The position numbers and the translations under genes were made by a program. Positions 8,196 to 64,000 of a stretch of 64,000 nt of DNA are shown here, one piece after another. The DNA comes from Mobula hypostoma. Its lineage: Eukaryota. The notes under the pieces were generated by a model. That model was not told the DNA's origin. It did no database searches and was given only the letters and a program-made list of their open reading frames with translations. The stretch lies in assembly GCF_963921235.1 (NCBI RefSeq), contig NC_086108.1, positions 40,178,001-40,242,000 on the forward strand, in the 5' to 3' direction. The number at the start of each line of letters is the position of its first letter. Position 1 is the first letter of the stretch.

Positions 8196-8692
8196 TCTTG
8201 TACCTAAAAATAGGCCACTGAATATGTGTTTGTGGTCTTCTGCTGCTTTAGCCCATCCACTTCAACTTTCAATGTGCTGTGCATTTGAAGAAGTTCTTCT
8301 GCACACCACTGTTGTAACACATGGTTATTTGAGTTACTGTTGCCTTCCAATCAGCTCTGGCCATTCTCCTCTGACCTCTCTCTTTATCAAGGTGTTTGTG
8401 CCCACAGAACTGCCCCTCACTGGAGCTTTTTTTTGTTTTTCACACCATTCTCTGTAAATTCTAGAGTTTGTTGAGTGTGAAAATCCCAGGAGAGCAGCTT
8501 CTGAGATAATCAAACCACCCTGCCTGGCACCAACAATCATTCCACAGTCAAAGTCACTTAGGTCACATTTCTTCCCCTTTCTTACATTTGGTCTGAACAA
8601 TAACTGAACCTCTTGACCATGTCTGCATGCTTTTATGCACTGAGATGCTGCTACATAATTGGCTGATTAGATATTTGCATTAATGAGCAGGT
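8196..8692 (-). mobile_element. Non-autonomous Tc1-like element (left part; terminus continues at 13169-13201)
   Basis: Minus-strand GKKCDLSDFDCGMIVGARQGGL..SEAALLGFSHST HTH typical of Tc1 transposase N-termini; terminal gtacctaataaagtggccactgag after the LTR element; homologous to 50629-51197. Confidence 0.75.
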
Positions 8693-8924
8693 TGTGGTAA
8701 ACTATATATATGTTGTAACTGGGTTAACTGTCTGGACATGCCCCTCTGCTAACAGCCACTGTGGCTCCTCCCACAGATTCATGAATAAAGGTGATTCCGC
8801 CTTGCCCCTCCCCCTCAGTCCAGGGGCAAACACTCAGCATGGAGGTCGTATTGTTGTACAGCGCATAAAAGCCTTTCAGTATTTTACCCAACCTCAGTCT
8901 TTTGGAGTTATTGAAGGTGCTTCA
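8693..8924 (+). repeat. 5' LTR of Gypsy A
   Basis: tgtggtaaac...gaaggtgcttca; roughly 92% identical by eye to 12931-13163. Confidence 0.95.
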
Positions 8925-8925
8925 A

Positions 8926-8939
8926 TTTTATTCGCTGTA
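8926..8939 (+). promoter_or_regulatory. Non-tRNA primer-binding site, complementary to LTR motif (putative self-priming)
   Basis: TTTTATTCGCTGTA is the reverse complement of TACAGCGAATAAAA (14/14 at 13096-13109; 13/14 at 8857-8870); no TGG start. Confidence 0.75.
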
Positions 8940-8950
8940 TGTTTTAAAGC

Positions 8951-10394
8951 ATGGAACATTCACTGAAACCCAACAAGTTAGACCTTGATCCGCAAATGCC
9001 TGAAGCTGGAAAAGCTTTCGAACTCTGGCTGACCTGCTTCGAAGCGTACCTAGACGAGATTAAAGCGACCGACCCTGTAGCGAAGCGCAGAGTTCTACTC
9101 TCCAGGGTCATTCCACGGGTCTATTCGCTAATCAGAGACCAGCCGAGCTACGACGGCGCGATGAGCACCCTCAAAGGACAATACCTGCGGCCGATAAACA
9201 GCGTCTACGCACAACATCACTTAGTGACACGGCAACAACCGCCTGGGGAATCAAGTGCTGAGTTCATCCAGGCCCTACGGACACTCGTGCGGGCCTGCAA
9301 TTGCCAGGAGCTAACGGCGACGCAGCATGCAGAGCTCCTAGTGAGAGACGCCTTCGTCACGGGGACCAGGTCAGTGTATGTGCGCCAGCGGCTGTTGGAA
9401 AAAGCCGATCTTACCTTAAGTTCGGCGATTGAGCTGGCTGACACGCTGGAAGCCGCTCTGCGCAACTCTGAGGCTCTCCAGGCACGCGATCCCCCGACGG
9501 CCTTGTGGGAGCCGCGGACCCTGCAACCCACCGGCGAATTGACCTCGGCTGCTGCCAGTTGTGAGTCCGCGAAGTGCTACTTCTGCGGACTCGAGAAGCA
9601 CCCCCGGAAAATGCTGCCCGGCCCGAGAAGCTACCTGCTCCAGCTGTGGAAAGAAGGGCAACTTCGGGTAGGTTTGTAAGTCCAAACCGCAAGCGGGATC
9701 GAGCAGTGCCGCGTGCGAAACATGGGGGTCGCCATCTTCCCTGCACACTGCCACCACGTGCGAGACATGGGGGCCGCCATCTTCCCTGCACGCCACCACA
9801 TGCAAGACATGGGGGCGGCCATCTTGTTCGGCGCCACCTTCCACCGCCTACAACCAACGGGAGCTCACGGGGCACCCCACTGCGCCGAACCAAGACAGCG
9901 ACTCAACCCTGGCTTCCGTGACCCTCGACCAAAGCGCTCCCCACCAGCTCGCAAGGTCAATGATGGACATCCTGGTGGAGGGGCACAGGACAAGCTGCCT
10001 GTTTGACATGGGCAGCGCAGAGAGTTTTTTCCACCCGGCCACGGTGCAGCATTGCGGACTCATGATACGGCCGGTAAGTCAGAGGGTCACAATGGCTTCC
10101 GGGTCGCATACAGCAGACATCCGGGGGGGGTTGTGTAGCGACACTAGTGGTGCAGGGCACAGAATACCGGGACTTTACATTACTGGTCTTGCCTCAACTG
10201 TGTGCCCCTGTGCTGTTGGGGCTCGACTTCCAGAGCCACCTGAAAAGTGTGACAATGAAGTATGATGGGCCCCTCCCACCAATTACTGTCGTAAATCCCC
10301 AGTTTTGTAGGGATACCCCGCTACTGACCACACACACACACCGACCCGCACATCCCATCCAACACCATGCCAACTGCCACACTACCGACACCAC
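8951..10394 (+). pseudogene. gag: Gypsy A gag + protease, frameshifted
   Basis: Gag ORF from ATG 8951 with LVRDAFVTG. Zinc knuckles CYFCGLEKHPRK(C) and CSSCGKKGNF..VC are split by a frameshift near 9607-9610 and a TAG near 9669. Protease LFDMGSAESF and VLLGLDF, with frameshifts near 10125 and 10400. Confidence 0.85.
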
Positions 10395-12860
10395 TTGCAC
10401 CACTCCACCCTCAGGATCCCTCCCCCACCGCTGTTCGCCAACCTGACCCCCGACTGTAAACCTGTGACAACTAAAAGCAGGAGGTACAGCGCGGGGGACA
10501 GAGCTTTCATTAAGTTGGAGGTGCAGCGGCTGCTCAGGGAGGGGGTCACTGAGGCAAGTACAAGTCCTTGGAGGGCGCAGGTGGTGGTTGTTCGGAACGG
10601 GGAGAAGAATAGGATGGTCGTTGTCTATAGCCAGACCATCAATAGGTTCACGCAGCTCGACGCGTACCCTCTACCCCGCATCGCGGATATGGTCAATCAG
10701 ATAGCACAGTACAAGGTGTACTCGACCATAGACCTAAAATCCGCTTACCATCAGCTCCTCATTCGCCGGGAGGACCGCCCTTACACCGCTTTCGAGGCGG
10801 ACGGCAGGCTTTATCAATTCCTGCGCATCCCCTTCGGTGTCACGAATAGTGTATCTGTTTTCCAGAGGGCAATGGACCAGATGGTGGACGAGTGCCAACT
10901 GAAGGCCACGCTCCCATATCTGGATAACATCACCATCTGTGGTCACGACTGGCAGGATCATGACAACAACCTCCAAAAATTTCTCCAAGCGGCCAAAGCT
11001 TTCAATCTCACCTATAACAAGGACAAGTGTGTATTCGGGACCACCCAACTTGCTATCCTTGGGTGTGTCGTGGAGAATGGAGTCATTGGCCCTGACCCCG
11101 ACCGTATATGCCCCCTGTTGGAACTCCCTCTTCCCAACACCCTCAGAGCCCTCAAAAGGTGCCTGGGCTTCCTTTCATATTACACCCAATGGGTCTCTAA
11201 CTATGCAGACAAGGCCCGCCCCCTGGTCAAGTCCACCACATTCCCCCTCTCTGCCAAGGCCCGCGCGGCCTTCAACCGCATAAAAGGGGACATTGCCAAA
11301 GCAGCAATGCATGCGGTGGATGAGGCCATCCCCTTCCAAGTAGAGAGTGACGCCTCCAACTTTGCACCGGCTGCTACCCTCAACCAGGCAGGAAGACCAG
11401 TGGCATTCTTCTCCCGTACCCTTCAAGGCCCTGAAATTCGGCACTCTGTGGTAGAGAAAGAGGCCCAGGCCATAGTGGAAGCTATAAGGCACTGGAGGCA
11501 CTATCTTGCCGGCAAAAGGTTCACCCTGCTAACTGACCAGCGCTCAGTCGCATTCATGTTTAATAATCAGCAGCGGAGCAAAATCAAAAATGATAAAATT
11601 CTGAGGTGGAGAATCGAGCTCTCCGCCTACAACTATGACATCATGTACAGGCCTGGGAAGCTCAACGAGCCCTCCGATGCCCTATCCCGGGGAACGTGCG
11701 CCAGCACGCAGATCGACCGGCTATACGCCCTACATGTAGATCTTTGCCACCCGGGGGTCACCCGCTTTTTCTACTTCGTGAAAGCCCAGAACCTGCCTTA
11801 CTCCCTTGAGGAGATCAGGACGATGACCAGGGACTGCCAGGTCTGCACAGAGTGCAGACCGCACTTCTACCGACCCGAAAAGGCACAACTCATCAAGGCC
11901 ACCCGCCCTTTTGAGCGACTGAGTGTTGACTTTAAGGGCCCCCTTCCCTCCACCGACCACAATGTGTACTTTCTTAACGTAATTGACGAGTACTCGCGGT
12001 TCCCCTTCGCCATCCCCTGCCCCAACGCCACTACCATGTCAGTTATAAAAGCCCTGCGCAAGCTCTTCACTCTGTTCGGATACCCATGCTATATCCACAG
12101 TGACAGAGGGTCCTCGTTTATGAGTGATGAGCTGCTCCAATACCTGCCGGCTAGGGGTATCGCAACCAGTAGGACCACGAGCTATAATCCCCGGGGGAAT
12201 GGACAGGTAGAGAAGGAGAATGGCACAGTGTGGAAAGCCACACTCTTAGCCCTCAGGTCAAAGAGACTGCCGGTCTCTCGCTGGCAGGAGGTCCTTCCCG
12301 AGGCACTCCACTCCATCCGCTCCCTGTTATGCACAGCCACCAATGCCACCCCTCATGAGGGGCTCTTTTCTTTTCCCAGAAAATCGACCACTGGGACGAC
12401 CCTACCAACTTGGCTGACGTCCCCAGGGCCAGTGCTGCACCGGAAACAGGCGAGGAGCAATAAGTACACCCCGATGGTCGAGAGGGTTCACTTACTTCAT
12501 GCGAACCCCCAGTATACCTACGTAGTTTTACCTGATGGGCGGGAGGACACGGTCTCCATTCGCGACTTGGCTCCCGCAGGAGCACCGGGCCCCTACTCTG
12601 AACACTCCATGGTGACTATTGACCCCGTACCCACCAATGTATGTACTTACGAGACACCGTGCACTCCAAGCCCTACACAGACACCACACGACACTCCCAT
12701 ACCAGGCGCGACGCACACGCACGAGGGATTACCGACGCCTAACGTGCTGGCACCTCAAGTCAGGCTGGAGCCAGCACAACCGCCATCGCCGGTGCAATCA
12801 CCGCCGGTGCTACGTAGATCACAGCGACGGACTCGACCGCCTGATAGACTTAACCTGTAA
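10395..12860 (+). CDS. pol: Gypsy A pol (RT, RNase H, integrase), open frame
   Basis: SPW, YPLPRI, IDLKSAYHQ, PFG, YLDN; ESDAS, EKEAQAI, TDQ; HH-CC zinc finger and DDE core (SVDFKGP, HSDRGSSF, NGQVEKEN). The start is a frameshift artefact, not a real ATG. Confidence 0.92.
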   Translation: MHHSTLRIPPPPLFANLTPDCKPVTTKSRRYSAGDRAFIKLEVQRLLREGVTEASTSPWRAQVVVVRNGEKNRMVVVYSQTINRFTQLDAYPLPRIADMVNQIAQYKVYSTIDLKSAYHQLLIRREDRPYTAFEADGRLYQFLRIPFGVTNSVSVFQRAMDQMVDECQLKATLPYLDNITICGHDWQDHDNNLQKFLQAAKAFNLTYNKDKCVFGTTQLAILGCVVENGVIGPDPDRICPLLELPLPNTLRALKRCLGFLSYYTQWVSNYADKARPLVKSTTFPLSAKARAAFNRIKGDIAKAAMHAVDEAIPFQVESDASNFAPAATLNQAGRPVAFFSRTLQGPEIRHSVVEKEAQAIVEAIRHWRHYLAGKRFTLLTDQRSVAFMFNNQQRSKIKNDKILRWRIELSAYNYDIMYRPGKLNEPSDALSRGTCASTQIDRLYALHVDLCHPGVTRFFYFVKAQNLPYSLEEIRTMTRDCQVCTECRPHFYRPEKAQLIKATRPFERLSVDFKGPLPSTDHNVYFLNVIDEYSRFPFAIPCPNATTMSVIKALRKLFTLFGYPCYIHSDRGSSFMSDELLQYLPARGIATSRTTSYNPRGNGQVEKENGTVWKATLLALRSKRLPVSRWQEVLPEALHSIRSLLCTATNATPHEGLFSFPRKSTTGTTLPTWLTSPGPVLHRKQARSNKYTPMVERVHLLHANPQYTYVVLPDGREDTVSIRDLAPAGAPGPYSEHSMVTIDPVPTNVCTYETPCTPSPTQTPHDTPIPGATHTHEGLPTPNVLAPQVRLEPAQPPSPVQSPPVLRRSQRRTRPPDRLNL

Positions 12861-12911: not shown

Positions 12912-12930
12912 GAAAAAAAGGAGAGGTGAA
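12912..12930 (+). promoter_or_regulatory. Polypurine tract of Gypsy A
   Basis: gaaaaaaaggagaggtgaa immediately before the 3' LTR. Confidence 0.85.
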
Positions 12931-13163
12931 TGTGGTAAACCATGTATATATGTTGTAACTGGTTAACTGTCTGGACACACCCCTCTGCTGACTGCCCCTG
13001 TGGCTCCTCCCACAGAGTCCTGAATAAAGGTGATTTCATCTTGCCCCTCTCCCTCAGTCCAGGGGCAGACACTCAGCATGGAGGTCATATTGTTGTACAG
13101 CGAATAAAAGCCTTTCAGTATTTTACCCAACCTCAGTCTTTTGAGGTTATTGAAGGTGCTTCA
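12931..13163 (+). repeat. 3' LTR of Gypsy A
   Basis: Direct repeat of 8693-8924, followed by the TSD. Confidence 0.95.
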
Positions 13164-16100
13164 CAGGTGTGTAAGTGTACCTAATAAAGTGGCCACTGAG
13201 TAGAATCCTCTCGGGTGCTGGCTAATTGGTTGAAAGCAAAATGGTCTAATTCTTCAGTTGTTCATGATAGTCCCCTCATATTGGTTCCGCCCTATGTTCT
13301 AATGTCTTCAGGCCTCAATATATGTTGAAAACACCCTTTACGCAGCTAGATTGTTTTGCAGGTCAACAGGATGGCTAGTAGCAGAATGATAACCAAAAGC
13401 ATAACACAAATCTTTCTCATGCATCTTTAATCTTAAGCCAGTGCTATTCGAGTTGCAAAATTTGTGTGGTAAAACATGTGCCCCACATATTTCAAATACA
13501 ATTGTGAAAAAAATCACAACTTAGTTACATTAGTTGGTAGCATGAATTTCCAGCATCTGCAGAATTCCTCGTGATAACTTAGTTACATGTGGCTTTCAGA
13601 TTTCTTTCAAAACTGCCAGATGACAGAAAATTTCAACCATTTTGCAGAACAAACTTTGAAATGGAAAATGGTCAAAGCAAATTTAAAGCCATCATGGGGA
13701 ATTTGTACAGAGAAATATTGGGATAAAAGTGTTTCAAGAGTGTAGATATTTTATTAACATCAAGGTTTTTTTTGGTAAACAGCCAAAACTGTCAGTACAT
13801 ACAAAGATGATCACAAAACCTGGAAGGTGATTGTAAACATGAGGCTTGATCATTAAGAACTTATCAAAATGTTAAACTAAAGCAAGTCTTAAAAAAAGTT
13901 GATTTTACTTGTAAAGCTAGCCAGAGTCAGCTGTTAGTGTATTAAAAGCTAAGCCTCACATCAGCAGAGAGAAAATTCATTTTTCTGGTTGAAAGAACCA
14001 TGTTTTTTGGCAAGAAAATGGTGAAATGGAGGCCTAAAGAGGATGTGGTTATTGAAGGCAGAAACTGAGGTCAGAAGCAGTTGAGAAGACAAGGTCGGAA
14101 TACACAGAAGTAAGTTAAGTCAGCAGCGCGGGCAAGGCCAGTTGTACCTTAAAAGAACAGCTTATTATATTCTGAAAGAGTTGTTATATCTGTGCAGAAG
14201 TGACGTTCCAGGTAAGTTGAAGAAACATAGTACAGGTACCCGAGTGAAACCTAACAAATAAAAGCAGAACTTCTGAATGCTCATGGGGCCTGATAAGAGA
14301 GGGAGGAAAGCAATTTAACTTTGGTTTGCAAAATACTAACTTCCCATTTACAGCTGCAAATGCACCCACTGTCAAATAGTTGTGGTATAGCTTGTACTGT
14401 TATACTGAAAACAGGCTTTTATTCCGGGAAGAAAATAAAAGTAATTTTAGAAACCAAGTACAAGGGGTACTGCAAACAAGGAAGTGCATGTATCATACTT
14501 ACTCTTTTAAGGACAAGCCAATCTGATACGCACACATAAACACGAACATACAACCCTTTTGGAGATGGGCATATTGCTAAAGACAAAAGCAATCAAACTA
14601 ATGATACAGCATGAAGTAATTAATACCTCAGAGCCTTAACACATCAGCCTGTAAAACGTGTTGATTGACGCTGTTAAGTAGTAGGCTTTATTAATGTAAT
14701 AATTTTACCTTGGAAGGGGTAACAGATTGTGCAGCAATTAAATTCCCTTAAGAAAAGCAATAAATATCTGCACTAAAGATATCACAGGTCTGGAATGAGG
14801 AATTTACATGGCACTCTATATTGACTATTTATGTTTTTCACTCAAACGCCTGCTGCTTGTAGTGTTGTATGTTTTACAAAATGGTTTTGTTTACCAAGGG
14901 TTATAATAGGTGTGGGCTTTATTGATTAATGCAGCCTCCTGGATTCAGATCTTTCTTAAATAGTATGATACTGTATTATTAAATGAAATTGTGCTTAACC
15001 AGATGTTCAGGGTGTTCAGCTTTTCTATGAAAGAATATATGATAACCTTACATGTTGCCTGAGTTAAATATTATGTCTTTATGAAATAATATTTTATTAA
15101 TAGAGGGGTGCCTTTCTTTGGATAAATCCAGCAGTCATGAGCAATGATGTTGTAAACACAGAGGCTGAGAGTATGGGACAGGATTTCCAGATTTCATTGT
15201 GCAATGTTTGTATTGTCACAACAGTGAAAACAAAGGCTGGAGGTGCTCTACAAGGCATTCCAGGATTTTACAATGGCATTTACAGTGGCAGAAAGGTTTA
15301 ACTATTCTGCAGGCAAACTTTGAAGTGGCAAATGCTCAAATAAAATTTAAAGCCATCATGGGGAATTGGTACAGAGAAATATTGAATATAAACACAGTAT
15401 TAATCTTGTCTGAAACAGCAGCTTTTACGAAAATAGCCACGCAGAAATCTCTGATTTACTAAGCTCTCCAGCTGTTGACACATGCTTCTGTGCTGAGTCC
15501 AGTTTGCTTTCGTTTTTTTGATTTCCCTTTGAAAGCATTCTTTATATCCCTTTTCAGACTGTACTTCCTGGCAGTGCGATGAGGGGAAAAAGCAATGATT
15601 TGTCTTCTGAAATGTTATAAATTCCACCATTTGAAATGAACAAAATGGCCTTTCAATAATAACTGGCTGCTACTTGCTGGTCTGGCCTGATACTTTTAAA
15701 AGTATGTTTTTATTTTTATAAATAGAAATTTCAATTTGATGCCCTACCACAAATGGAAATGACTCTCTAACTGACTTCTCAGAAAAGGAGTGAAGCTGTT
15801 TTTTATTTATATAAGTAATAGTTTTGATATTCCCCTTGATCGAAAGCTAGAAGCGCAGGAGATCCATTATGCTCGTAAACGAAGATCTTAGCACTGACTT
15901 GAGCAGGACTTAATGTGCTTATTCCCTGCTGACTATAAATGATGCAGGAATGCAGCCAATGATGTCCGCGGTGTGCATTGGCTGCAGTACTGTCAAGGAG
16001 AAAGGAAGAGTGCAGACATTGTGAATTTCTCACATTTTTAAAGGCAGCTGATTCCTCTCAAAAGGGAGACGCATCCTGTGGGCATCAAGATTCTCTGATG

Positions 16101-16344: not shown

Positions 16345-17490
16345 TCCTATTTAAGTTTGCTGACAACAACGCTGTCGTTGGCCGAATCAAAGGTGGTGAT
16401 GAATCAGCATGTGGGAGGGAGATTGAAAATCTGGCTGAGTGGTGCCACAACAACAGCCTCTCACTTAACGTCAGCAAGACCAAGGAGCTGATTATTGACT
16501 TTAGAAGAAGGAAACGGAAGGTCCATGAGCCAGTACTCGTTAGGTGATCAGAGGTAGAGAGGGTCAGTAACTTCAAATTCCTCAGTGTTATCATTTCAGA
16601 GGATCTGATCTGGGTCCAGCACATAAGTGCCATTACAAAGAAATCACGGCAGTGGCTCTACTTTCTTAGAAGTTTGCAAAGATTTTGCATGTCATCTAAA
16701 ACTTCGACAAACTTCTATAGATGTGTAGTGGAGAGTATATTGACTGCTGCACCGTGGCCTGGTAGGGAAACACCATCCTATTGAACAGAAAAATCCTACA
16801 AAAAGAAGTAGATGCGGCTCAGTACATCACAGGTAAAGTCCTCCCTACCACTGAGCACATCTTCATGGAGCGCTGTTTCAAAAAAGCAGCATCTATTATC
16901 AAGGACCCCCATCATCCAACCCATGCTCACTTCTTATCGCTGCCACCAGGAAGGAGGTACAGGAGCCTCAGGACCCACACCACAGGTCCAGGAACAGATG
17001 TCACCCGATAACCATTAGGAAGGAGGTGCAGGAGCCTCAGGACCCACACCACAGGTTCAGGAACAGATGTCACCCGATAACCATTAGGAAGGAGGTGCAG
17101 GAGCCTCAGGACCCACACCACAGGTTCAGGAACGGATGTCACCTGGTAACGATCAGGCTCTGGAACTAGAGGTGATAACTTCATTCAACTTCACTTAACC
17201 CATTACTAAACTGTTCCCACAACATATATATTCACTTTGAAGGACTCTTTCTCTCATGTCCTTGACATTTATTGCTTATTTATTCATTATTATGATTATT
17301 TCCTTTTTTTTTTCATTTTGGTTTTGCAGTTTTCACATTGGTTGTCTGTCTGTCCTTTTGGGGCAGGCTTTCATTGATACTATTGTGTTTCCTTTATTTA
17401 CTAAAACTGCCCACAAAAAAAGATCAGGGTTATATATCATGACACATATGCTCTTTGATAGTAAATTTACTTTGAACTTTGAACTTTGAA
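16345..17490 (+). mobile_element. Rex1/Babar LINE 3' fragment with internal 3x69-bp duplication
   Basis: KFADNNAVVGRI..., [19 protein letters not shown] motifs; tail ending (ctttgaa)n. Confidence 0.85.
16948..17154 (+). repeat. 69-bp tandem repeat x3
   Basis: Units start at 16948, 17017 and 17086. Confidence 0.92.
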
Positions 17491-29294: not shown

Positions 29295-30183
29295 TTGATA
29301 TCTAAAAACTTAACAAACTTCTACAGATGTGTTGTAGAGAGTATATTGACTGGCTGTATCACAGCCTAGTATGGAAACACCAATTCCCTTGAATTGAAAA
29401 ATCCTACAAAAAGTGGTGGATACGATCCAGTCCATCACAGGTAAAGCCCTCTCCACCTGTCATCACATCTACATGAAATACTGTCACAGGAAAATGGCAT
29501 CCATCCTCCAGGACCCTCACTGCCCAGGACATGCTGTCTTCTCACTGCTGCCATTAGGAAGAAGGTACAGGAGTCTCAGGACACACACTACCAGTTTCAG
29601 GAACAGTTCCTACACCTCTTATACCAAAGGAGATAACTTCACTGAACTTCACTTGCCCCATCATTGAAATGTTCCCATAACAATGGCTCACTTTTAAGGA
29701 CTCTTCATCTCATATTCTCAATATTTATTGCTTATTTATTTATTATTAGCTGGCTGCTGGTGTAGTGGCATCAGCGCCGGACTTCGGAGCGAAGGCTTCC
29801 AAGTTCGAATCCAGCCGGCTCCCCTGCACGCTTTCCATCCGTGCTGGGTTGAGCGTCGAGCTAGCAACTCAGCCTCATAAAAATAAGAAAGCCTGCTAAA
29901 AAAACGCCGTCATGACGGCGTCCCGATGACTCCACTCGGAGTTAAGGGCTTTCTTCTTCTTATTTATTATTATTATTATTACAAAGATTTGTATTATTTG
30001 TATCTGCACAGTTTGTTATATTCTGCACTTTGGTTGAACACCCAAGTTGGGTGGTCTTTCACTGATTCTGTTATAGTTATTATTCTATATATTTATTAAA
30101 TATGCCCAAAAGAAAATGAACCTAAGGGTTGTATATAGTGACATATATGCATTTAGATAATAACTTTACTTTGAATTTTGAAT
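29295..30183 (+). mobile_element. Rex1/Babar LINE 3' fragment, interrupted by a SINE
   Basis: aacttctacagatgtg..gagagtatattgactgg...; QSITGKAL..HIY..CHRK.ASI..DP; tail to tttactttgaattttgaa. Confidence 0.8.
29748..29960 (+). mobile_element. tRNA(Arg-TCG-like)-derived SINE, type 2 body
   Basis: A/B boxes (tggtgtagtgg, gttcgaatcc), gacttcgga anticodon arm, (ttc)n tail, inserted in a duplicated ttatttattatt tract. Confidence 0.8.
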
Positions 30184-44925: not shown

Positions 44926-45367
44926 AGGACAAACCCTTGGATTTCTCTTGAATAAATTATGGATATCAAGCCAGTTAAGTTAAAAAGATCTCCAGATGCC
45001 TGTTACTGTAGTGCGTCTGGTGTTGAGGTGCCAGATTTCTGGTCTTTTATCATACAGGGAGCTTGGATGTTAAACACCGGACAGCAGTATTATTCAGCAA
45101 TGTTCTATTATTTTATACACTTCACAGTGAACAAGGACCTTGAAACGGAGTGGCGTGTAGAAGCAACAAGGTAGTTGTTGTGTTACTTCTGTCTAAATAT
45201 ACCGTGGGTTAACAGTAAAGAATCATATTCTGGAAGAATTAGAGAACTCTTATTTATAGCAATAAACAAACACGTCTTAATCCAGCCACGTGCTGGAACA
45301 TTCTGGCAATCCCACGCATGCTTAGTGCTCTGTCCAATCAAGTACTGTCACATCATTGCACGTGATA

Positions 45368-46335
45368 CTGTTAACTAGTGCGCATGCGCCGGTCGTGCAT
45401 GCAGCCTGTTACAGCTGTTCCGACGAGTATTCTTACTTTTTTAACTTACGTTATTTTTTGTATTTTTTTTCACGGTAACACGTTGAAGTTGCACCTTCTC
45501 TAACACGCTGGTAGAGAGAGTTTTATTTAGGTTTTTAGCGCTGGAAATAGTTACATTCTGACACGTCTCATTAGCGGGACAGAAGCATGGTCGCATTGTT
45601 TATTCCAGCGACCAGCTGATTGAGCTTATGCCAGCCAGTTTAGCCAGCAGAGCGGCGGACACCCCTGCTGAAATGTGGAGGAAAACACACAGAGGATGCA
45701 GAGGGGGATCACAAAGGTGAGGAAAGAGGACTGGGTTGAGACAACAGAGACTTATGGAGAAGAGGAGTTCGGTGGGTAATAAAATGGATGAGTTCACGGC
45801 ACTAGCCAGGCATCAGAGAACATTTCGGGAGTGCAGTGTTATACGTTTTACTGGAACGGGGCTGCACGAGTACATACCCGATCAAATCTTTTCCATGGAT
45901 GGCTTCCAGACCGTTCGGGCTGACCGGAAGTGCACTGAGAGCGGTAAGCGTAAAGGAGTTGGGTGCTTACTGTTCTGGTTAACAACGGATGGTGCAATCC
46001 GGGTCATATTATGATCGAGGAATGTGTTTGTAGACCGGATATTGAACTTTTTGCTGTTGGACCCCGGCCATATTCCACCAAGATACAACACTGGGCATTA
46101 CGGGAGGTTGTTCCTGCCTGTGGCCATCGAACTTTGCAGCTCCTCCCATGGAGGGTCAGACACCCTGAGCCAATAGGCTGGTCCTGGACTTATTTTCACC
46201 TGGCATAGTCTGCATTTTGTTGTTTGATTGTTTGTGGTTTCTGTATTGCTGTATTTATGCTCTGTTCTTGGTTGGTGTGGCTTTAACGAAACCCAATTTC
46301 CCTCGGGATCAATAAAGTATATCTATCCATCTATC
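45368..46335 (+). mobile_element. Internally deleted Rex1/Babar element inserted in the 3' LTR of Gypsy B
   Basis: 5'UTR and endonuclease N-terminus (SVGNKMDE..FRECSV..GFQTVRADR..SGKRKG) joined directly to the ORF end and ggatcaataaagtat(atct)n tail. Confidence 0.8.
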
Positions 46336-46404
46336 ATATCACCACATCTTTCCTTCCTTAAAAAGAAAAACAATTAACAATGTTAATCAAGGCAAATACA
46401 TAAT

Positions 46405-49400
46405 TCAACAAGTCTCTATCAGTCTCTCTGTGGGTTTACGAACATGAGTAGACCTTCTAAGTGGTACACAGAGATCTTGTGTTTCCTTGTTATTATTTTC
46501 ATGTTTTGTCTCGTCTCCATCAGTTAACTGAGTCTCTGAAGTTGGCTCTTTCTTGAGGTCTTTGTGATTTCTTCTTACCACTGCTCCCTCCTCTGTTTGG
46601 ACCACATATGATCAGGGTTGTACTTCAAGTACTGTAGCTTTCTGTGTCTATGTGTCCATTTTGTCTTGTATCCTCACTTCATCTCCCTGATGCAGTTCAG
46701 GTAACGGTTGAGAACTTCTATCAAAATATATTTTCTGCTTTGTTTTGTGTTCATCTTTCCATCTTTTCACTTGTTCACCTTCCTCTGTTCTCAGAAGGCT
46801 CTCATCCCTTGGCAGATTAAATCTCAAACGTCGTCCCATCAAGAGCTGAGCAGGCAAAAATCCACATTCAAGTGGAGTACTGCAGTAGGCTAACAAGTTT
46901 TTATAAAAATCACTTCCACTATCTTTTGCTTTGTGCATCAGTTTCTTGACAATTCCTACCGATTTCTCAACTAATCCATTAGACTGAGGGAAAAATGGAC
47001 TAGATGTTGTATGAACAAAGCCCCATTCACAAGCAAAATGTTTCATGCATTCACTACTGAATTGTGGACCGTTGTCTGTGAAAAATTCATCAGGTACACC
47101 ATGTCTTGAAAAATACGATTTCATGCGTGTAATTACATTTTCTGCAGTCGTTCTGCCAGACAACACACTTCAGGATACAGTGAGTAGTAATCTGTTATTA
47201 ATAGATAGTCTTTGTAGTTAGTTATAAGAAGATCAATGCCTACCTTCTGATAAGATCTCTGAAGATTTGGATGTGGATGCAGTGGCTTCTTAGGGTTGCT
47301 AGGTTGGTACTTAAGGCATATTTGACAAGAAGACACCAATCCTGCAATCTCTTGATTCATCCTGGGCCAAAACATCACTTCCCATGCCCTTCTCTTACAT
47401 TTTTCAATGCCTAGGTGGCCTTCATGAATTTTAGCAAGCATTTCTTTATGGAGACTTTTAGGTATAACAATTCTACTACCTTTGTACAATACCCAATCCA
47501 CAACAGACAGTTCTGATCTGTGGTTCCAATAATCTTGTACTACTGAGGTACAGACTTGCCTAGTATCTGGCCATCCATCCAACACCACTTGTATTACCTG
47601 ATTGAGAAATTTGTCCTTCTCTGTCTCAAGACGCAGCAGTTCCAACTTTTTGGGAGCAACAGGTACAGTTTCTATGACCATATCAATAAATACCTGAACA
47701 TCAATAACGTTCCTGTGGCTGTCTTATGTTGTTGGATCCACAGCTCTGGAAAGTGTGTCAGCTGTGTACATGAATTTTCCAGGTGTGTATAACACATTCA
47801 ACAGATATCTTTGCAATTTGATCATCATTTGCTGAATTCGCAAAGGACTGTCGCTTAAAGGTTTGTTAAACAATGCAATCAACGGCTTATGATCGGTTTC
47901 AACATCAATAGATTGCCCTGACACAAACTGATGAAATCTCTCACAAGCAAACATAATGCTGAGCAACTCTTTTTCAATTTGGACATACCTTGTTTCTGGA
48001 TCAGATAATGAACGAGATGCGTATGCCAGTGGTAGCCACTCCTGATCATGTTTCTGGAGTAATACTGCCCGTAAGCCTGCCTGAGATGCATCACATGAGA
48101 TTTTGATGGGTCTCTCAGCATCATAAAATTTCAACACAGGTTCTTTTGTGAGTACTTTCTTGGGATTTTTCCATGCCTTCTCCTGTTCATGGTTCCAGCT
48201 CCATTTGTTTCTCTTTTCTGTTAGCTGCTTCAATAGAGCAAGCTGTTCCGAGAGATTGGATATGAATTTTCCCATATAGTTAACCATTCCCATAAACCTC
48301 TGAACATCCTTTTCACATTGCGGTCTTGGCATGTTCTCAATAGCAGAAACCTTCAATGGATCAGGACACACACCCTCTTTGCTGATGATATCACCCACAA
48401 ATGTAAGTTCAGTCACTCCTAGCTGACATCTGTCTTTATTCAATTTCAGGTTAGCCTTGCATGTTGCGTCAGAGGCTTGTCTGAGCCTGGTGTCATGCTC
48501 TTGTTTAGTCGATCCCCAAATAATAATATCATCCATGGATGTATCTATGCCCTCAATATGCTCATATAACATGTGAATGGTTTTATGGTACACTTCAGGA
48601 GCTGATGAAATTCCAAAAGGGAGCCTAAGAAAACAGTATCTGGCAAAAGGAGTGTTAAAGGTACACAATTCTGAACTCAGTTCATCTAATTTGAGTTGCC
48701 AGAATCCAGAGGATGTATCTAATTTACTAAAATACCTTGCATTAGCAAACTGTGATATCATTTCTTCATGAGTAGGCAATTTGAGATGCTCTCTTTTAAT
48801 GGCCCGATTCAAGTCTCTTGGGTCTAAACAAATCTTTATTTTTCTATTTTTCTTATCAACAATGACAAGCGAATTGACCCATTAATTTGGTTCATCAATT
48901 TTTTTTTATGACTCCAAGCCTTTCCATTCTGTCTAGCTCCGTTTTTAGTTGATGACGTAATGCAAAATGTACTTTTCTGCACTGATGTATTACCAGTTGC
49001 ACTGTATAGTCAATTTTAATCGAGTTCTCTTCTGAAGATAACCAAGCCCTTTAAACAAGTCTTCATACTCTTTCATCAAGTCACTGTGTTCTGACTCTGT
49101 GTCGTTATACAGGACTAAAATTCTTCTCACCAAATTAAATCTTTCATAGGTAGATAAACCCTGTACATTGACTGTACATTTTTTGGCACGACCGCAAATG
49201 AAAGCGTATGCATAATATTTTTGTGTAATACCTTTGCCACGCATGTTCCTTTAACTGAAATGTCTGCACTTGAATACCCAGTCACTTTTATATTTGTCTG
49301 ATGTAACTTCAGTCTTGGCTTTAAAGCATTAAACTCAGATTCTGCAAGAACATTTACTTGCGCTCCAGTATCAAGTTTAAACAGAATATTGTTTTGACTC

Positions 49401-50280
49401 ACTTGCAACGGAATAGTCCAGTCATTCTTACTTTGTTTATTTTCACAAAGCACATCTATATAAAATTCCTAACGTTCATCTTCAAGCACAGCATTTATTT
49501 GTTTCATTTTATTTTCCTTCTTTCTACTTTTACAACAGCGTGAAAAATGATTAATCTTACCGCAGCCATTGCAAATTTTGCCATGTGTGGGACACTGATT
49601 AAGATGATGTTTCTGCGCACAGCGATCACATAACTTTTTTCTTTCCAATGCCGTCTTGCTCTCTGTTGGTTTCATTGACGTATTATTACATTTCTTAATG
49701 TTTTCGCGCTTTTTTACAGCGTTTACAGTTGCAGTTTTTGACAAAAAGCTCTTCAGCCTGCAATGTTACGGAATCAGAAGCTTTGCAAAGCGCCAAAGCT
49801 TTTTCAAAATTTAAATCTTGCTCTCTCAACAGCCTTTCTCCTTCAGAGTATTATCTTGAATGCCACAAACAAGTCTATCTTTAATGAGAGAGTCCGTGAG
49901 CAATCCAAACTCGCATGTTCTACTACGCTTTCTTAATTCAGTAACATACTGATCAATTGTTTCAGCTGCTCTCTGCACACGTGTGAAGAATTTATATTGC
50001 TCATACGTTAAATTACGCTTAGGTATGCAAAATACTTCCAATCTGTCCATAATCGACTTTAAATCGAAATTTTCTCCATCTTCAAAGACAAACTTATTAT
50101 ATACCTCTACTGCATCATTCCCGATTACATGGAGCAAAAGTGCAGCTTTGGTTTTTTTCAGATTTTTCTTCATAATCGATCGCTGATAAGTACAGTTCAA
50201 ACTGTTGCTTGAATATCCTCCAAATCTCAGCTACATTGCCAGTCAGCTGAAGTTTTGGTGGGAGTTGTAAACCTTCCATT
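46405..50280 (-). pseudogene. Gypsy B gag-pol with stops and frameshifts
   Basis: Gag (KAALLLHVIG, LIKDRLVCGI), two CCHC-like knuckles, protease FKLDTGAQVN, RT (FSKLD..SGFWQ, RLPFGI, SMDD), RNase H (CDAS, EKELL, TDHKPL), integrase (HEGHLG..CQIC, TDNGPQF, SNGLVEK). Confidence 0.92.
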
Positions 50281-50375
50281 TTACTGTTTACAGTTCAAAT
50301 TTTTTTCTTCTTCTCTTTTTTTTTCAATTATCTTCGATTCTCGATTCTGGATTCTCCCATATTATTCTTCCAGAA

Positions 50376-50390
50376 CCACTTCTGACACCA
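50376..50390 (-). promoter_or_regulatory. Primer-binding site, tRNA-Leu type
   Basis: TGGTGTCAGAAGTGG directly after the 5' LTR, complementary to the vertebrate tRNA-Leu 3' end ...CCACTTCTGACACCA. Confidence 0.8.
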
Positions 50391-50589
50391 TGTTATGTTA
50401 CTTCTGTTTAAACGTACTGTGGATTAACAATAAAGAATCATATTCTGGAAGAGTTAGAGAACTTTTTTCTACAGTAATAAACAAACACGTCTTAACCCAG
50501 CCACGTGCTGGAACATTCTGCAATTCCGCACATGCTCAGTGCTCTGTCCAATCATGTACTGTCACATCATTGCACGTGATATCACCACA
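50391..50589 (-). repeat. 5' LTR of Gypsy B
   Basis: TG...CA ends; direct repeat of 45176-45367. Confidence 0.92.
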
Positions 50590-53640: not shown

Positions 53641-54092
53641 TATTTATTGTTTTTATTGTTTGCATGATTTGTGCTTTTTTCTCTTTCTCTGTATGCTTTG
53701 GTGTCGGTCTATTTTTGAAAACTGGGTTCTTTCGGGTTTCTTGCTTTACGGCGACCTGTAAGCAAATAAATCTCAAAGTTGTATAATTTATACACTCTTT
53801 GATCATAAATGTACTTTGAATTGCTTTGAGTGCCTCACCTTTGGTTGCATGTGTATCCTGAACTTCCTGACTTTTATGAGAAGGAGGGTCAGGAATGTAA
53901 TGATGTGTAAACATACCAGATATTAACATTTTTTCTATAAAATTGTTTTAGAGTCATAGAGAAGCTCAGCATAGAAAGAGGCTCTTTAGCTACCAAGTCT
54001 ACACTGAATGTCTTATATTAATTTCATTGTTAAAAATACTCCCCATATTCTTACCAACATCTGTTATTAAACAGTATGTGTAAAGACCTACC

Positions 54093-54878
54093 ACAATGAA
54101 CCACTTCACACTTATCTGGGTTGAACTTCATCTGCTACTTCTCAGCCTAGTTCTGCATCCTATCGACGTCCTGCTGTAACCTCTGACAAGCCTCCAGACT
54201 ATCCACAACATCCCCAATTTTTGTGTCATCAGCAAACTTATAACCTACTCTTCTACAACCTCATCCAGATCATTTATAAAAATCACAAAGAGGAGGGGTC
54301 CCAGAACAGATCCTTGTGGAACACCACTAGAATACAAGCCATCTACAACCACCCTTTGCCTTCTGTGGGCAAGCCAATTCTGGATCCACAAAGCAAGGTC
54401 TCCTTGGATCCCATGCCTCCCTACTTTCTGAATGAGCCTTGCATGGGGAACCTTATCAAATGCCTTACTGAAATCCATATACACTACATCAACTGCTCTA
54501 ACTTTATCAATGTGTTTAATTACATCCTCAAATAATTCAATTAGGCTTGTAAGGCACAACCTGCCCTTGACAAGCCATACTGACTATCCCTAATCAGATT
54601 ATGTCTCTACAAATGCTCATAAATCCTGCCTCTCAGGATCTTCTCCAACAACTTGCTGACCACTGAAGTAAGACTCACTGGGCTGTAATTTCCTGGGTTA
54701 ACTTTACTCCCTTTCTTGAAGAAGGGAATAGCATTTGCAACCTTTCAACCCTTTGGTACTTCTCCCATCTCTGTTGATGATGGGACGATCATCACTAGAG
54801 GCTCAGTAATCTCCTCCCTTGCTTGCCACGGTAGCCTGGGATATATCTTGTCCAGTCCCAGTGACTTATCTAACTTAG
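54093..54878 (-). mobile_element. CR1 RT fragment (copy of 62780-63560)
   Basis: CLTSLIELFE, VVYMDFSKAFDKVPH, GVPQGSVLGP. Confidence 0.88.
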
Positions 54879-55866
54879 TACACTGCAATTTTTTACCATT
54901 CTTTGTAAAACTGCTCAAGCACTGCAAGGTAGCATGGGGATCATGAGTGAACAGCCCTTTTCAAGTCCGGCCACAAATTCTCAATTGGATTGAAGACCGG
55001 ACACTGACTTGGCCACTCCAGGAAATTAACTTTGTTGTTTTTATGCCACCTCTGTGTAGCTTAGGCTTTGTGTTTGGTGTCATTGTCCTGCTGGAAAACT
55101 AATTTTCTCCCGAGTTGCAGTTCTCTTGCAGACTGCATCAAGTTTACCTCCAAGGTCCCCCTGTATTTTGCTGTATTCATTTTAACCTCTACCTTCACAA
55201 GCATTCCAGGTTCTGCTGTGGTGAAGCATTCCTTCTGCATAATGCTGTCACCACAATGTTTCACGGTAGGGATAGTGTGTTTTTTATGATATGTATTGCT
55301 TGGCTTACACCAAAGGTAGCAATTAATCTGATAGCCAAAAAGCTGAATTTTGATTTTAGCTGCCTTCAGAGGCTACTACATGCCTTCCAGCAAACTTTAG
55401 CTGAGATTTCATGTGAGTTTTTTTTTTCCAACAGTGGCTTTCTCTTTGCCACTTTCCCATAAAGCTGAGACTGGTGAAGCACCTGAGTCACAGATGTCGT
55501 AAGTTCAGGCTCTCCAGTCTCAGCCACTGAAGCTTGTAACTTCTTCAGAGCTGTCATAGGTCTCTTGGTGGTCTCACTCACTCGTACCCTTCTTGCATAG
55601 TCACTTTGTTTTTGAGGATGGCTTGCTCTAGGCAGATTTACATATTCTTTCCAGTTCTTAGATTGACTTAACTGTACTCCAAGGATACTCACCAGCAGTT
55701 GGACCTTCCAAATACAGGTGTATTTTTACTACAATCAATTGAAACACCTTGACTACACACAGGGCTCCAAAAACAGATCTCCATTTAACTAATTATGTGA
55801 CTTCAGAAACCAATTGGCTGCATCAGTGAAGATTTGGTGTGTCATATTAAAGCGGGGGGGGGGTGG
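54879..55866 (-). mobile_element. Tc1/mariner transposon remnant
   Basis: VAKRKPLL, KHCGDSIM, FQQDNDTKH motifs on the minus strand. Confidence 0.85.
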
Positions 55867-61694: not shown

Positions 61695-64000
61695 CAGTGC
61701 CTATAAAAAGTATTCACCCACCACCTGTTGGTTTTCATGTTTTATTGTTTTACAACATTGAATCACAGTGGATTTAATTTGGCTTTTTTGACACTGATCA
61801 AGAGAAAAAGATTACTTCATGTCAAAGTGAAATCAGATCTCTACAAAGTGATCTAAATAAATTACAAATATAAAACACAAAATAAATAATTACAAAAGGA
61901 TTCATCCCCTTCAAGTCAGTATTTAGTACATGCACCATTGGCAGCAATCACAGCCTTGAGTCTGTGTGGATAGGTCTCTGTCAGCTTTGTACATCTGGAC
62001 ATAAAACATAGAACATGAAAATCTACAGCTCGTTACAGGCCCTTCAGCCCACAATGTTACGCTGACCATGTAACCTACTCTAGAAACGGCTGAGAATTTT
62101 CCTATGGCATAGCTCTCTGTTTTTCTATGTTCCATGTACCTATATAAGAGACTCTTAAAAATCCTTATTGTATCCGCCTCTACCACCGTCACTGGCAGTG
62201 CATTCCATGCACTCACCACTATCTCTGTGAAAAACTTACCCCTGACATCCTCCTTGTACCTACTTCCAAACACCTTAAAACTATGCCGCCTGGTGCTGGC
62301 TATTTCAGCCCTGGGGAGAAAGCCTCTGGCTATCCATATGATCAATGCCTCTCATCAGCTTATACACCTCTATTAGGTCACTTCTCATCCTCTGTTGCTC
62401 CAAGGAGAAAAGGCCAAATTCACTCAACCTATTCTCATAAGCCATGCTCTCCAATCCAGGCTATATCCTTGTAAATCTCCTCTGCACAGTCTCTATAGTA
62501 TCCACATCCTTCCTACAGTGTGGTGACCAGAACTGAACACAATACTCCAAGTGGGGTCTAACTAAGGTCTTGTATAGCTGTGACATTACCTCACGGCTCT
62601 TGAACTCATCCCACGGTTGATGATGGTCAACACACCATACGCCTTCTTAATAACACTGTCAACCTGAGCAGCAGCTTTGAGTGTCCTATGGACATGGACT
62701 CCAAGATCTTGCTGATCCTCCACACTGCCAAGAGTATTACCATTAATATTATATTCTGTCTTCAAATTTGACCTACCAAAATGAACCACTTCACACTTAT
62801 TTGGGTTGAACTTCATCTGCCACTTCTCAACCCAGTTCTGCATCCTATTGATGTCCTGCTATAACCTCTGACAATCTTCCAGACTATCTAGAACACCCCC
62901 AACTTTTGTGTAATCAGAAAACTTATAACCTACCCTTCTACTTACTCATCCAGATCATTTATAAAAAATCACAAAGAGGAGGGGTCCCGGAACAGATCCT
63001 TGTGGAACACCACTAGAGTACAAGCCATCTAAAACCACCCTTTGCCTTCTGTGGGCAAGCCAGTTCTGGATCCACAAAGCAAGGTCTCCTTGGATCCCAT
63101 GCCTCCCTACTTTCTGAATGAGCCTTGCATGGGAAACCTTATCAAATGCCTTACTGAAATCCATATACACTACATCCACTGCTCTAACTTTATCAATGTG
63201 TTTTGCTACATCCGCAAATAAATTAGGCTTGTAAAGGACAACCTGCCCTCGACAAGCCATACTGACTATCCCTAATCAGATTATGTCTCTACAAATGCTC
63301 ATAAATCCTACCTCTCAGGATCTTCTCCAACAATCTGCTGACCACTGAAGTAAGACTCACCGGTCTGTAATTTCCTGGGTTAACTTTACTCCCTTTCTTG
63401 AAGAAGAGAATAGCATTTGCAACCCTTTCACCATCTGGTACTTCTCCCATCTCTATTGATGATGGGAATATCATCACTAGAGGCTCAGTAATCTCCTCCC
63501 TTGCTTCCTACTGTAGCCTGGGATATATCTTGTCCAGTCCCGGTGACTTATCTAACTTAGTACACTGCAATTTTTTTACCAGTTTTCTTTACAAAACTGC
63601 TCAAGCACCGCAAGGTAGCATGGGGATCATGAGTGAACAGCCCTTTTCAAGTCCGGCCACAAATTCTCAGTTGGATTGAAGACCGGACACTGACTTGGCC
63701 GCTCCAGGAAATTAACCTTGTTGTTTTTAAGACACCTCTGTGTAGCCTTGGCTTTATGCTTGGTGTTATTGTCTTGCTGGGAAACAAATTTTCTCCTTAG
63801 TTGCAGTTCTGTTGCAGACTGCATCAAGTTTACCTCCAGGATCCCCCTGTATTTTGCTGCATTCATTTAACCTTCTACCTTCACGAGCCTTCCAGGCTCT
63901 GCTGCAGTGAAGCATTCCCTCAACATGATGCAGTCACCACTATGTTTCACGGTAGGGATAGTGTGTTTCTGATGATGTGTAGTGTTTGGCTTACACCAAA
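61695..64000 (-). mobile_element. Tc1/mariner transposon (TIR at 61695, after TA) with nested CR1; runs off window end
   Basis: ta|cagtgcctataaaaagtattcacc terminus; VSQQDNNTKH, ERPSQCPVFNPTENLW motifs at 63627-63866. Confidence 0.85.
62002..63560 (-). mobile_element. CR1 3' half nested in Tc1
   Basis: PGNYRPVSLTS, YMDFSKAFDKV, WQMKFNPNKCEVVHFG, TRRHSFKV; ttctatg tail at about 62002-62020. Confidence 0.9.

Follow-up and report, generated by a model that had tools for sequence, protein, structure and literature searches.

A Ty3/gypsy retrotransposon in the genome of Mobula hypostoma, referred to here as element A, appears to start minus-strand synthesis in the manner of Tf1, using its own RNA in place of a tRNA; on the sequence comparisons described below we assign this reading a probability of roughly 0.75. 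The complementarity between the LTR of element A and its putative primer-binding site (PBS) goes beyond chance, and the site is not a tRNA site. A sequence-only reading of the window, meaning the whole stretch of 64,000 nucleotides analysed, had proposed tRNA-independent priming of the Tf1 type. This proposal is supported by related families, which keep the pairing in the same place with different sequences.

Element A and its self-complementary primer position

Element A is a decayed copy of 4.47 kb, and all features given for it lie on the plus strand. It shows the Ty3/gypsy (Metaviridae) layout with gag, the order PR-RT-RNase H-IN, TG...CA LTRs, a polypurine tract and a short target duplication. 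The 5′ LTR (8693..8924, 232 bp, TGTGG...TTCA) and the 3′ LTR (12931..13163) form a direct repeat of 91-92% identity; contigs of other copies diverge at 8924 and have loose ends at 12931. The element is flanked on either side by the 5-nt target-site duplication CAGGT (8688..8692 and 13164..13168), the two copies of which are identical. In contigs from four of four public runs, 8687 was joined directly to 13164, with five letters fitting either side, which represents the empty site. Because these contigs show the empty site of a Tc1-like host repeat, the borders of element A are fixed independently. The host repeat itself is a fragment of a Tc1-like transposon (window 8334-8692 and 13164 onward) with a 110-aa frame on the minus strand (8334-8666), and many contigs of the four runs carry it without the insertion.

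The open frame of gag (8948..9679, ATG at 8951) contains a CCHC knuckle and starts 9 nt past the PBS; its N-terminus aligns with the M..LRP start of the relatives, and no Pfam match was obtained for this frame. According to the list of open frames, the protease region (9672..10265) lies in a frame other than that of gag and has in-frame stops before RT. It is followed by an RT-RNase H-integrase frame of 849 aa (10311..12860) with the Pfam domains RVT_1, RT_RNaseH, RT_RNaseH_2 and rve. The RNase H domain corresponds to PF17917, and the best relative among solved structures is Ty3. A polypurine tract, GAAAAAAAGGAGAGGTGAA (12912..12930), as read from the sequence, abuts the 3′ LTR and has the same placement in relatives. 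In the relatives, gag and pol share a single frame of about 1200 aa, which contains PF13650/PF13975. The window copy is dead, since its gag and protease frames differ, its LTRs are ~8% diverged and two in-frame stops stand ahead of RT. At the gag-protease junction (9709-9840), three tandem units of 42-45 nt were observed, the other two being 87% and 60% identical to the first.

Past the LTR end at 8924, and separated from it by a spacer of one base (A at 8925, by direct reading of the sequence), the primer position begins with TTTTATTCGCTGTA (8926-8939), which has no TGG. The reverse complement of this stretch is found exactly at 13096-13109 in the 3′ LTR and with 13 of 14 positions at 8857-8870 in the 5′ LTR. 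Sequence inspection and alignment of the LTRs bear out the sequence-only reading on both counts, the missing TGG one base past 8924 and the two matches to its own LTRs. A search of the window with the 14-nt PBS, allowing up to two mismatches, yielded three matches, all inside element A, where 0.38 were expected. When the 30 nt past the LTR were shuffled 2000 times, complements to the LTR reached at most 11 nt (in 3 of 2000 shuffles), compared to the 14 nt observed.

The family copies extend this pairing. The LTR-leader stretch was searched in the host genome (3.48 Gb), resulting in 3160 first-look candidates, 40 of which, 90-93% identical, were scored. Position 8941 is A in 27 of 30 copies and position 8940 is C in 19 of 30, so that most family copies pair over 16 nt, and the candidate self-primer in the 5′ LTR comprises 8855..8870 (8857-8870 in the sequence-only reading), paired with a putative PBS at 8926..8941, the first 14 nt of which are exact against the 3′ LTR. 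Among the 30 genomic copies, all 16 pairs are Watson-Crick in 7; 12 contain no non-pair, counting G.U as paired, and 24 contain at most one. In the window copy the hexamer of the 5′ LTR motif reads CATAAA (8864-8869), as the C at 8864 spoils one pair together with the AATAAA that the motif had been said to hold. This C is private to the window copy, being A in 29 of the 30 genomic copies and in all contigs covering the site, and in the 3′ LTR motif (13094..13109) the AATAAA is indeed intact (13103-13108).

The stretch between motif and PBS is also predicted to contribute to the structure, as had been suggested earlier. For 8853-8955 a minimum-energy fold of -26.7 kcal/mol was calculated (z = -3.38), and none of 200 shuffles was as stable. 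The predicted fold is closed by the PBS helix and continued by a hairpin (8871..8920) with the arms 8871-8881 and 8909-8920, which starts at the first base past the primer motif and presumably lies within the rest of R and U5. In some of the copies L111-L122, the first base past the motif, which is also the first base of the hairpin, is A or C instead of G.

Conserved geometry and covariation in related families

Homologues of the element A pol were found in rays and sharks (76-91%, in proteins that look intact), more distantly in a sea anemone, and by the hundreds on contigs of ~4 kb (53-65%). An alignment of 25 of these homologues served to retrieve the loci compared here, 70 on metagenome contigs and 10 in records filed as bacterial MAGs. 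The latter ten contigs (L101-L110) encode an animal-type gypsy pol, and one of them, 4023 nt long, consists of nothing but such a retrotransposon; most likely they represent mis-binned eukaryotic DNA.

Among the 80 loci, which belong to other hosts and are related to element A at 39-65% pol identity, about 32 show the same geometry of LTR motif and PBS, with 23-24 distinct motif/PBS sequence pairs, not counting the pair of the window. In loci with both LTRs, one or two bases past the LTR end precede a stretch of 10-19 nt that complements a motif located 35-56 nt upstream of that end. This motif varies in sequence between families, and the PBS lies 31-69 nt downstream of it. An unbiased scan for exact inverted repeats with a loop of 25-80 nt was performed on the 1 kb upstream of pol, for which 52 of the 80 loci had sequence and 28 had none. 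Arms of at least 9 nt were detected in 30 of the 52 loci, 25 of them sharing one common geometry, and in 24 of these 25 the motif ends in UAAA followed by RCC, and the LTR ends in CA plus one nucleotide followed by UUUA. L061 represents a variant of the common geometry with the motif end AAAU. Coding controls of the same size (n=51) contained nothing of at least 9 nt in 48 cases and exactly 9 nt in the other three. Scanning whole loci revealed at least five further families on permuted contigs (L035, L046, L056, L101, L105). The pairing of L088 comprises 11 bp including one G.U, and in L044 the PBS is located at the contig start and the motif at the contig end.

Details of the junction recur as well. 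The spacer is a single base in nearly all related families, mostly A, with G in L088 and T in L061 and L101. In 14 of the 20 families folded, a predicted hairpin is opened by the first three bases past the motif, usually as RCCU...AGGY. Reading by eye, the last six bases of the motif are AAUAAA, AUUAAA or a known variant in about 15 of roughly 24 pairs. As AATAAA or ATTAAA stands at the motif end in most families, in the 3′ LTR these six bases probably double as a polyadenylation signal.

No signature was detected in about 15 of the 52 scanned loci (e.g., L052, L057, L063, L065, L076, L083, L089, L103, L107). Since most of these have broken frames or lack the junction, they count neither as support nor as counter-examples; L052, judged by eye, may have short-loop imperfect pairing only. 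A clear counter-example to a self-pairing PBS was not found in the 52 loci.

Covariation between motif and PBS had been named in the sequence-only reading as a check, and it was evaluated on 19 distinct motif/PBS combinations, which represent fewer than 19 independent events because of common ancestry, many motifs sharing a ...GTTGAWTAAA core. L034 and L091 were left out as copies of counted families with a shifted junction. The four junction pairs, UAAA with UUUA, are nearly invariant in the 19 combinations. At positions 5-12 from the junction, 147 of 152 cells are Watson-Crick, compared to a mean of 82.7 and a maximum of 117 after permuting the PBSs among families, and none of 5000 permutations reached 147. 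Three to five types of Watson-Crick pair occur at each of positions 5-9 and 11-12, position 10 being nearly invariant. Matched changes also separate sister families, G>T with C>A in L094 versus L095 and T>C with A>G in L036 versus L039. The check was positive across related families; within the element A family it was not, as variation among the 30 copies is chiefly CpG decay and the single matched double change (L005) does not exceed chance.

Matches of 14 nt do arise somewhere in large genomes, and the complementarity might be regarded as an accident of a single old element. This explanation is hardly credible, being refuted by the shuffles, the coding controls and the permutations, which show that the pairing is not due to chance.

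Primer identity and the start of the genomic RNA

Minus-strand synthesis by definition starts where the LTR meets the internal region, a border set by the 3′ end of the primer. In nearly all families the duplex follows this border at a distance of 1 nt and no other primer site fits, so the pairing points to priming and not just to a stem. The distance from the 3′ end of the PBS to the gag ATG is only 0-21 nt in the related families, and in L033, L037, L047 and L109 the PBS touches or overlaps the ATG, leaving no room for a tRNA or other primer site.

The window also holds a Steamer-like gypsy element, referred to as element B (45176-50581, minus strand), which serves as a positive control for the ordinary layout with a tRNA site. 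Directly past its LTR end it carries TGGTGTCAGAAG (PBS 50390-50379), the PBS of Steamer, which is complementary to tRNA-Leu according to PMC8905726; its earlier description as an element with a normal tRNA-Leu PBS was correct. Just past this PBS, a leader arm of 12 nt (50375-50364, minus strand) complements the LTR of element B ~50 nt before the LTR end, over 12 nt in the 3′ LTR and 10 nt in the 5′ LTR. This arm is located downstream of the tRNA site, and it looks like a U5-leader stem flanking that site; a stem of this kind could be the structure from which self-priming evolves. Two further pairs of repeats were observed in the window. Direct repeats of 1.2 kb (54085-55314 and 62770-64000), 92% identical, 8.7 kb apart and reaching the window end, are probably the LTRs of a larger element, and another pair (16694-17292 and 29300-29748) shows about 75% identity at a distance of 12.6 kb.

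The arm of element B demonstrates that such stems occur beside true tRNA sites, and the pairing in element A might accordingly be a structural RNA stem of the U5-leader type, serving packaging, dimerisation, translation control or strand transfer, while another primer is used. The RNA start of element A being only a candidate, with no promoter motif conserved upstream of the LTR motif in 23 families, would agree with this. We nevertheless regard a purely structural stem as unlikely, since the paired segment itself fills the primer position from 1 nt past the LTR end up to the gag ATG, the end of the duplex coincides with the LTR border in nearly all families, and neither a TGG nor a site resembling the sampled tRNA-Lys sequences is present.

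The tRNA sample was drawn from the top-scoring Rfam tRNA matches genome-wide (30 loci) and contained 35 ARAGORN genes, all tRNA-Lys, with 9 distinct sequences. Against these nine tRNA-Lys sequences the longest match of the PBS was below 6 nt, so that the search for a host tRNA partner, likewise named as a check beforehand, found none within this sample; ARAGORN found no tRNA gene within the window. Where the 14-mer of element A occurs elsewhere in the genome with an atypical next base, 12 of 12 sampled occurrences are family copies (10 LTRs, 2 PBSs). Priming by half-tRNAs is known in copia-type elements (PMC6317226), and with a sample made up of tRNA-Lys one might still consider a host tRNA, tRNA fragment or other small RNA of the host, resembling the LTR motif by chance, as the partner of the PBS. 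Such a partner is very improbable, as about 24 families from different hosts each have a PBS of their own, which nevertheless always matches the LTR of that family, and as the PBS of element A shows neither a TGG nor a sampled occurrence outside its family.

For self-priming, we propose the following course. Transcription of the genomic RNA would start within the LTR, at or just upstream of the 11-19-nt motif (TGTACAGCGAATAAAA, 8855-8870 in element A). The motif would then fold back across the rest of R-U5 (31-69 nt) and pair with the site one base past the LTR (8926-8941), the predicted hairpin at the first base past the motif stacking on the motif/PBS duplex. The RNase H of the element would cut the RNA past the terminal ...UAAA, and the freed 3′ OH would be extended through the spacer base and then through U5, followed by strand transfer to the 3′ R as described for Tf1/Tf2. 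Motif and PBS would be re-matched in each round if the primer is copied during plus-strand strong-stop synthesis, which would explain their covariation. The 3′ end of the RNA, cut right past UAAA, was also considered as primer and rejected on two grounds: the bases preceding the PBS (...ACAA) would offer no pairing to a poly(A) tail, and a terminal hexamer misfits cleavage 10-30 nt downstream of the signal.

The proposed start depends on where the promoter lies. Across the 23 families, neither a TATA box nor an initiator is conserved at constant spacing upstream of the motif. The contigs of the four public runs, possibly derived from RNA, showed neither starts nor ends nor poly(A) tails of element A. 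By eye, the LTR of element A contains two pairs of TATA-like and initiator-like sequences, ATAAAG at 8785 with TCAGTCC (A at 8817) and AATAAAAG at 8863 with TCAGTCT (A at 8896). Were the latter pair the promoter, the motif would belong to U3 and be absent from the 5′ end of the RNA. The AATAAAAG-like motif end would then act as a TATA-like box for a start ~30 nt downstream, in keeping with the initiator-like TCAGTCT at 32 nt, and the motif, which is also contained in the 3′ part of any full-length RNA, would pair with the PBS only from there, in circularisation or the first strand transfer. Several consequences make a U3 location of the motif quite unlikely. R plus U5 would shrink to about 10-30 nt, several families would lose their polyadenylation signal, and a primer cut from the 3′ copy would detach R and the tail from the genome. 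In several families the motif end is a poor TATA match (GGTAAA, GTGAAA, ACAAAT), and the primer would still be left unexplained.

Relation to known self-priming elements

Experimental proof of self-priming is, to our knowledge, confined to Tf1-type elements of fission yeast. Tf1, Tf2 and Tj1 are fungal chromoviruses which carry a chromodomain, are larger and have longer LTRs. The element A clade differs from this type in lacking the chromodomain, in LTRs of about 150-240 bp, a leader of about 100 nt and a size of about 4-4.5 kb, as well as in the end of its putative primer, UAAA, usually within AAUAAA or AUUAAA, followed by the RCC hairpin. Cleavage and priming have been demonstrated for Tf1, whereas we infer them for the element A clade. 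The likeness is evident in the design of the primer position, as Tf1 and Tf2 of Schizosaccharomyces pombe and Tj1 of S. japonicus have no tRNA site and a PBS past the 5′ LTR that complements their own upstream R (PMC7175516, PMC5341516, PMC4600332). The duplex of Tf1 measures 11 nt compared to 11-19 nt in the element A clade, and further RNA structure adjoins the duplex in both, though as a prediction in the latter.

Self-priming is described as established for Tf1/Tf2 and has been proposed for Tj1, other fungal chromoviruses, vertebrate sushi elements and the plant elements Tcn1 and TAR (PMC6317226, PMC4600332, PMC7175516). The vertebrate Tf1/sushi elements (sushi-ichi; Butler et al. 2001 as cited in PMC6317226, PMC4600332) resemble element A as vertebrate gypsy elements with proposed self-priming, but they are chromoviruses. 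In element A no chromodomain was found by Pfam, and PF00385 was present in none of 120 homologues among the matches listed, which agrees with the earlier description of the element as chromodomain-less and sets it apart from the Tf1/sushi group. For plant chromoviruses of the Tcn1 clade and TAR copia elements, self-priming was likewise predicted clade-wide from LTR-PBS complementarity (PMC6317226); they belong to another superfamily or clade and another host kingdom.

Short LTRs, compact size and aquatic animal hosts from several phyla are shared with the Steamer/SURL C-clade of the Mag lineage (PMC8905726). This C-clade has the tRNA-Leu PBS TGGTGTCAGAAG, whereas element A has no TGG site and shares only 25.5% identity with the Steamer-like element B across 388 aa of RT-RNase H. 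Neither the tRNA-Leu or tRNA-Ser PBS nor the close pol that characterise C-clade members is found in element A. Mosquito elements of the Mag lineage are reported to use tRNA-Ser, tRNA-Leu or tRNA-Arg primers (PMC3286476). Over the same RT-RNase H stretch, the bit scores to Ty3 were 156 for element A and 174 for element B; being no closer to Ty3 than element B gives a weak hint that element A stands outside the Tf1/sushi group. The ESM Atlas, solved structures and papers on mollusc and annelid clades (PMC6238403, which holds no PBS data) provided no clade name for element A. We found no published self-priming in a chromodomain-less animal gypsy clade in the full-text literature, a coverage that leaves aside subscription journals and Repbase notes.

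More tentatively, and at slightly under even odds, the sequence comparisons may define a compact clade of animal gypsy elements, in rays, sharks, sea anemone and many aquatic hosts, which dispenses with tRNA primers. Its motif of 11-19 nt would serve as capped 5′ end of the RNA, as primer of reverse transcription and, with its last six bases, as polyadenylation signal, and the hairpin would mark the cut. Such a clade would be independent of Tf1/sushi and invisible to defences that direct 3′ tRNA fragments against tRNA primer sites.

The principle of self-priming is already known, and the element A clade would be a further lineage of that kind. As self-priming had been described for vertebrate Tf1/sushi elements, the finding is less novel than the sequence-only reading implied. 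A second animal lineage with this signature would nevertheless mean that tRNA-independent priming is commoner and wider in animals than annotation pipelines assume, and pipelines seeking tRNA primer sites will label such elements "PBS-less". About two dozen natural variants of one primer/PBS design offer material for studying the requirements of an RNase H in cutting RNA duplexes. The clade is also relevant to the suggestion that priming by hairpins is older than priming by tRNAs (PMC3601003). Finally, elements of this clade would be predicted to escape silencing by 3′ tRNA fragments (cf. PMC7472051).
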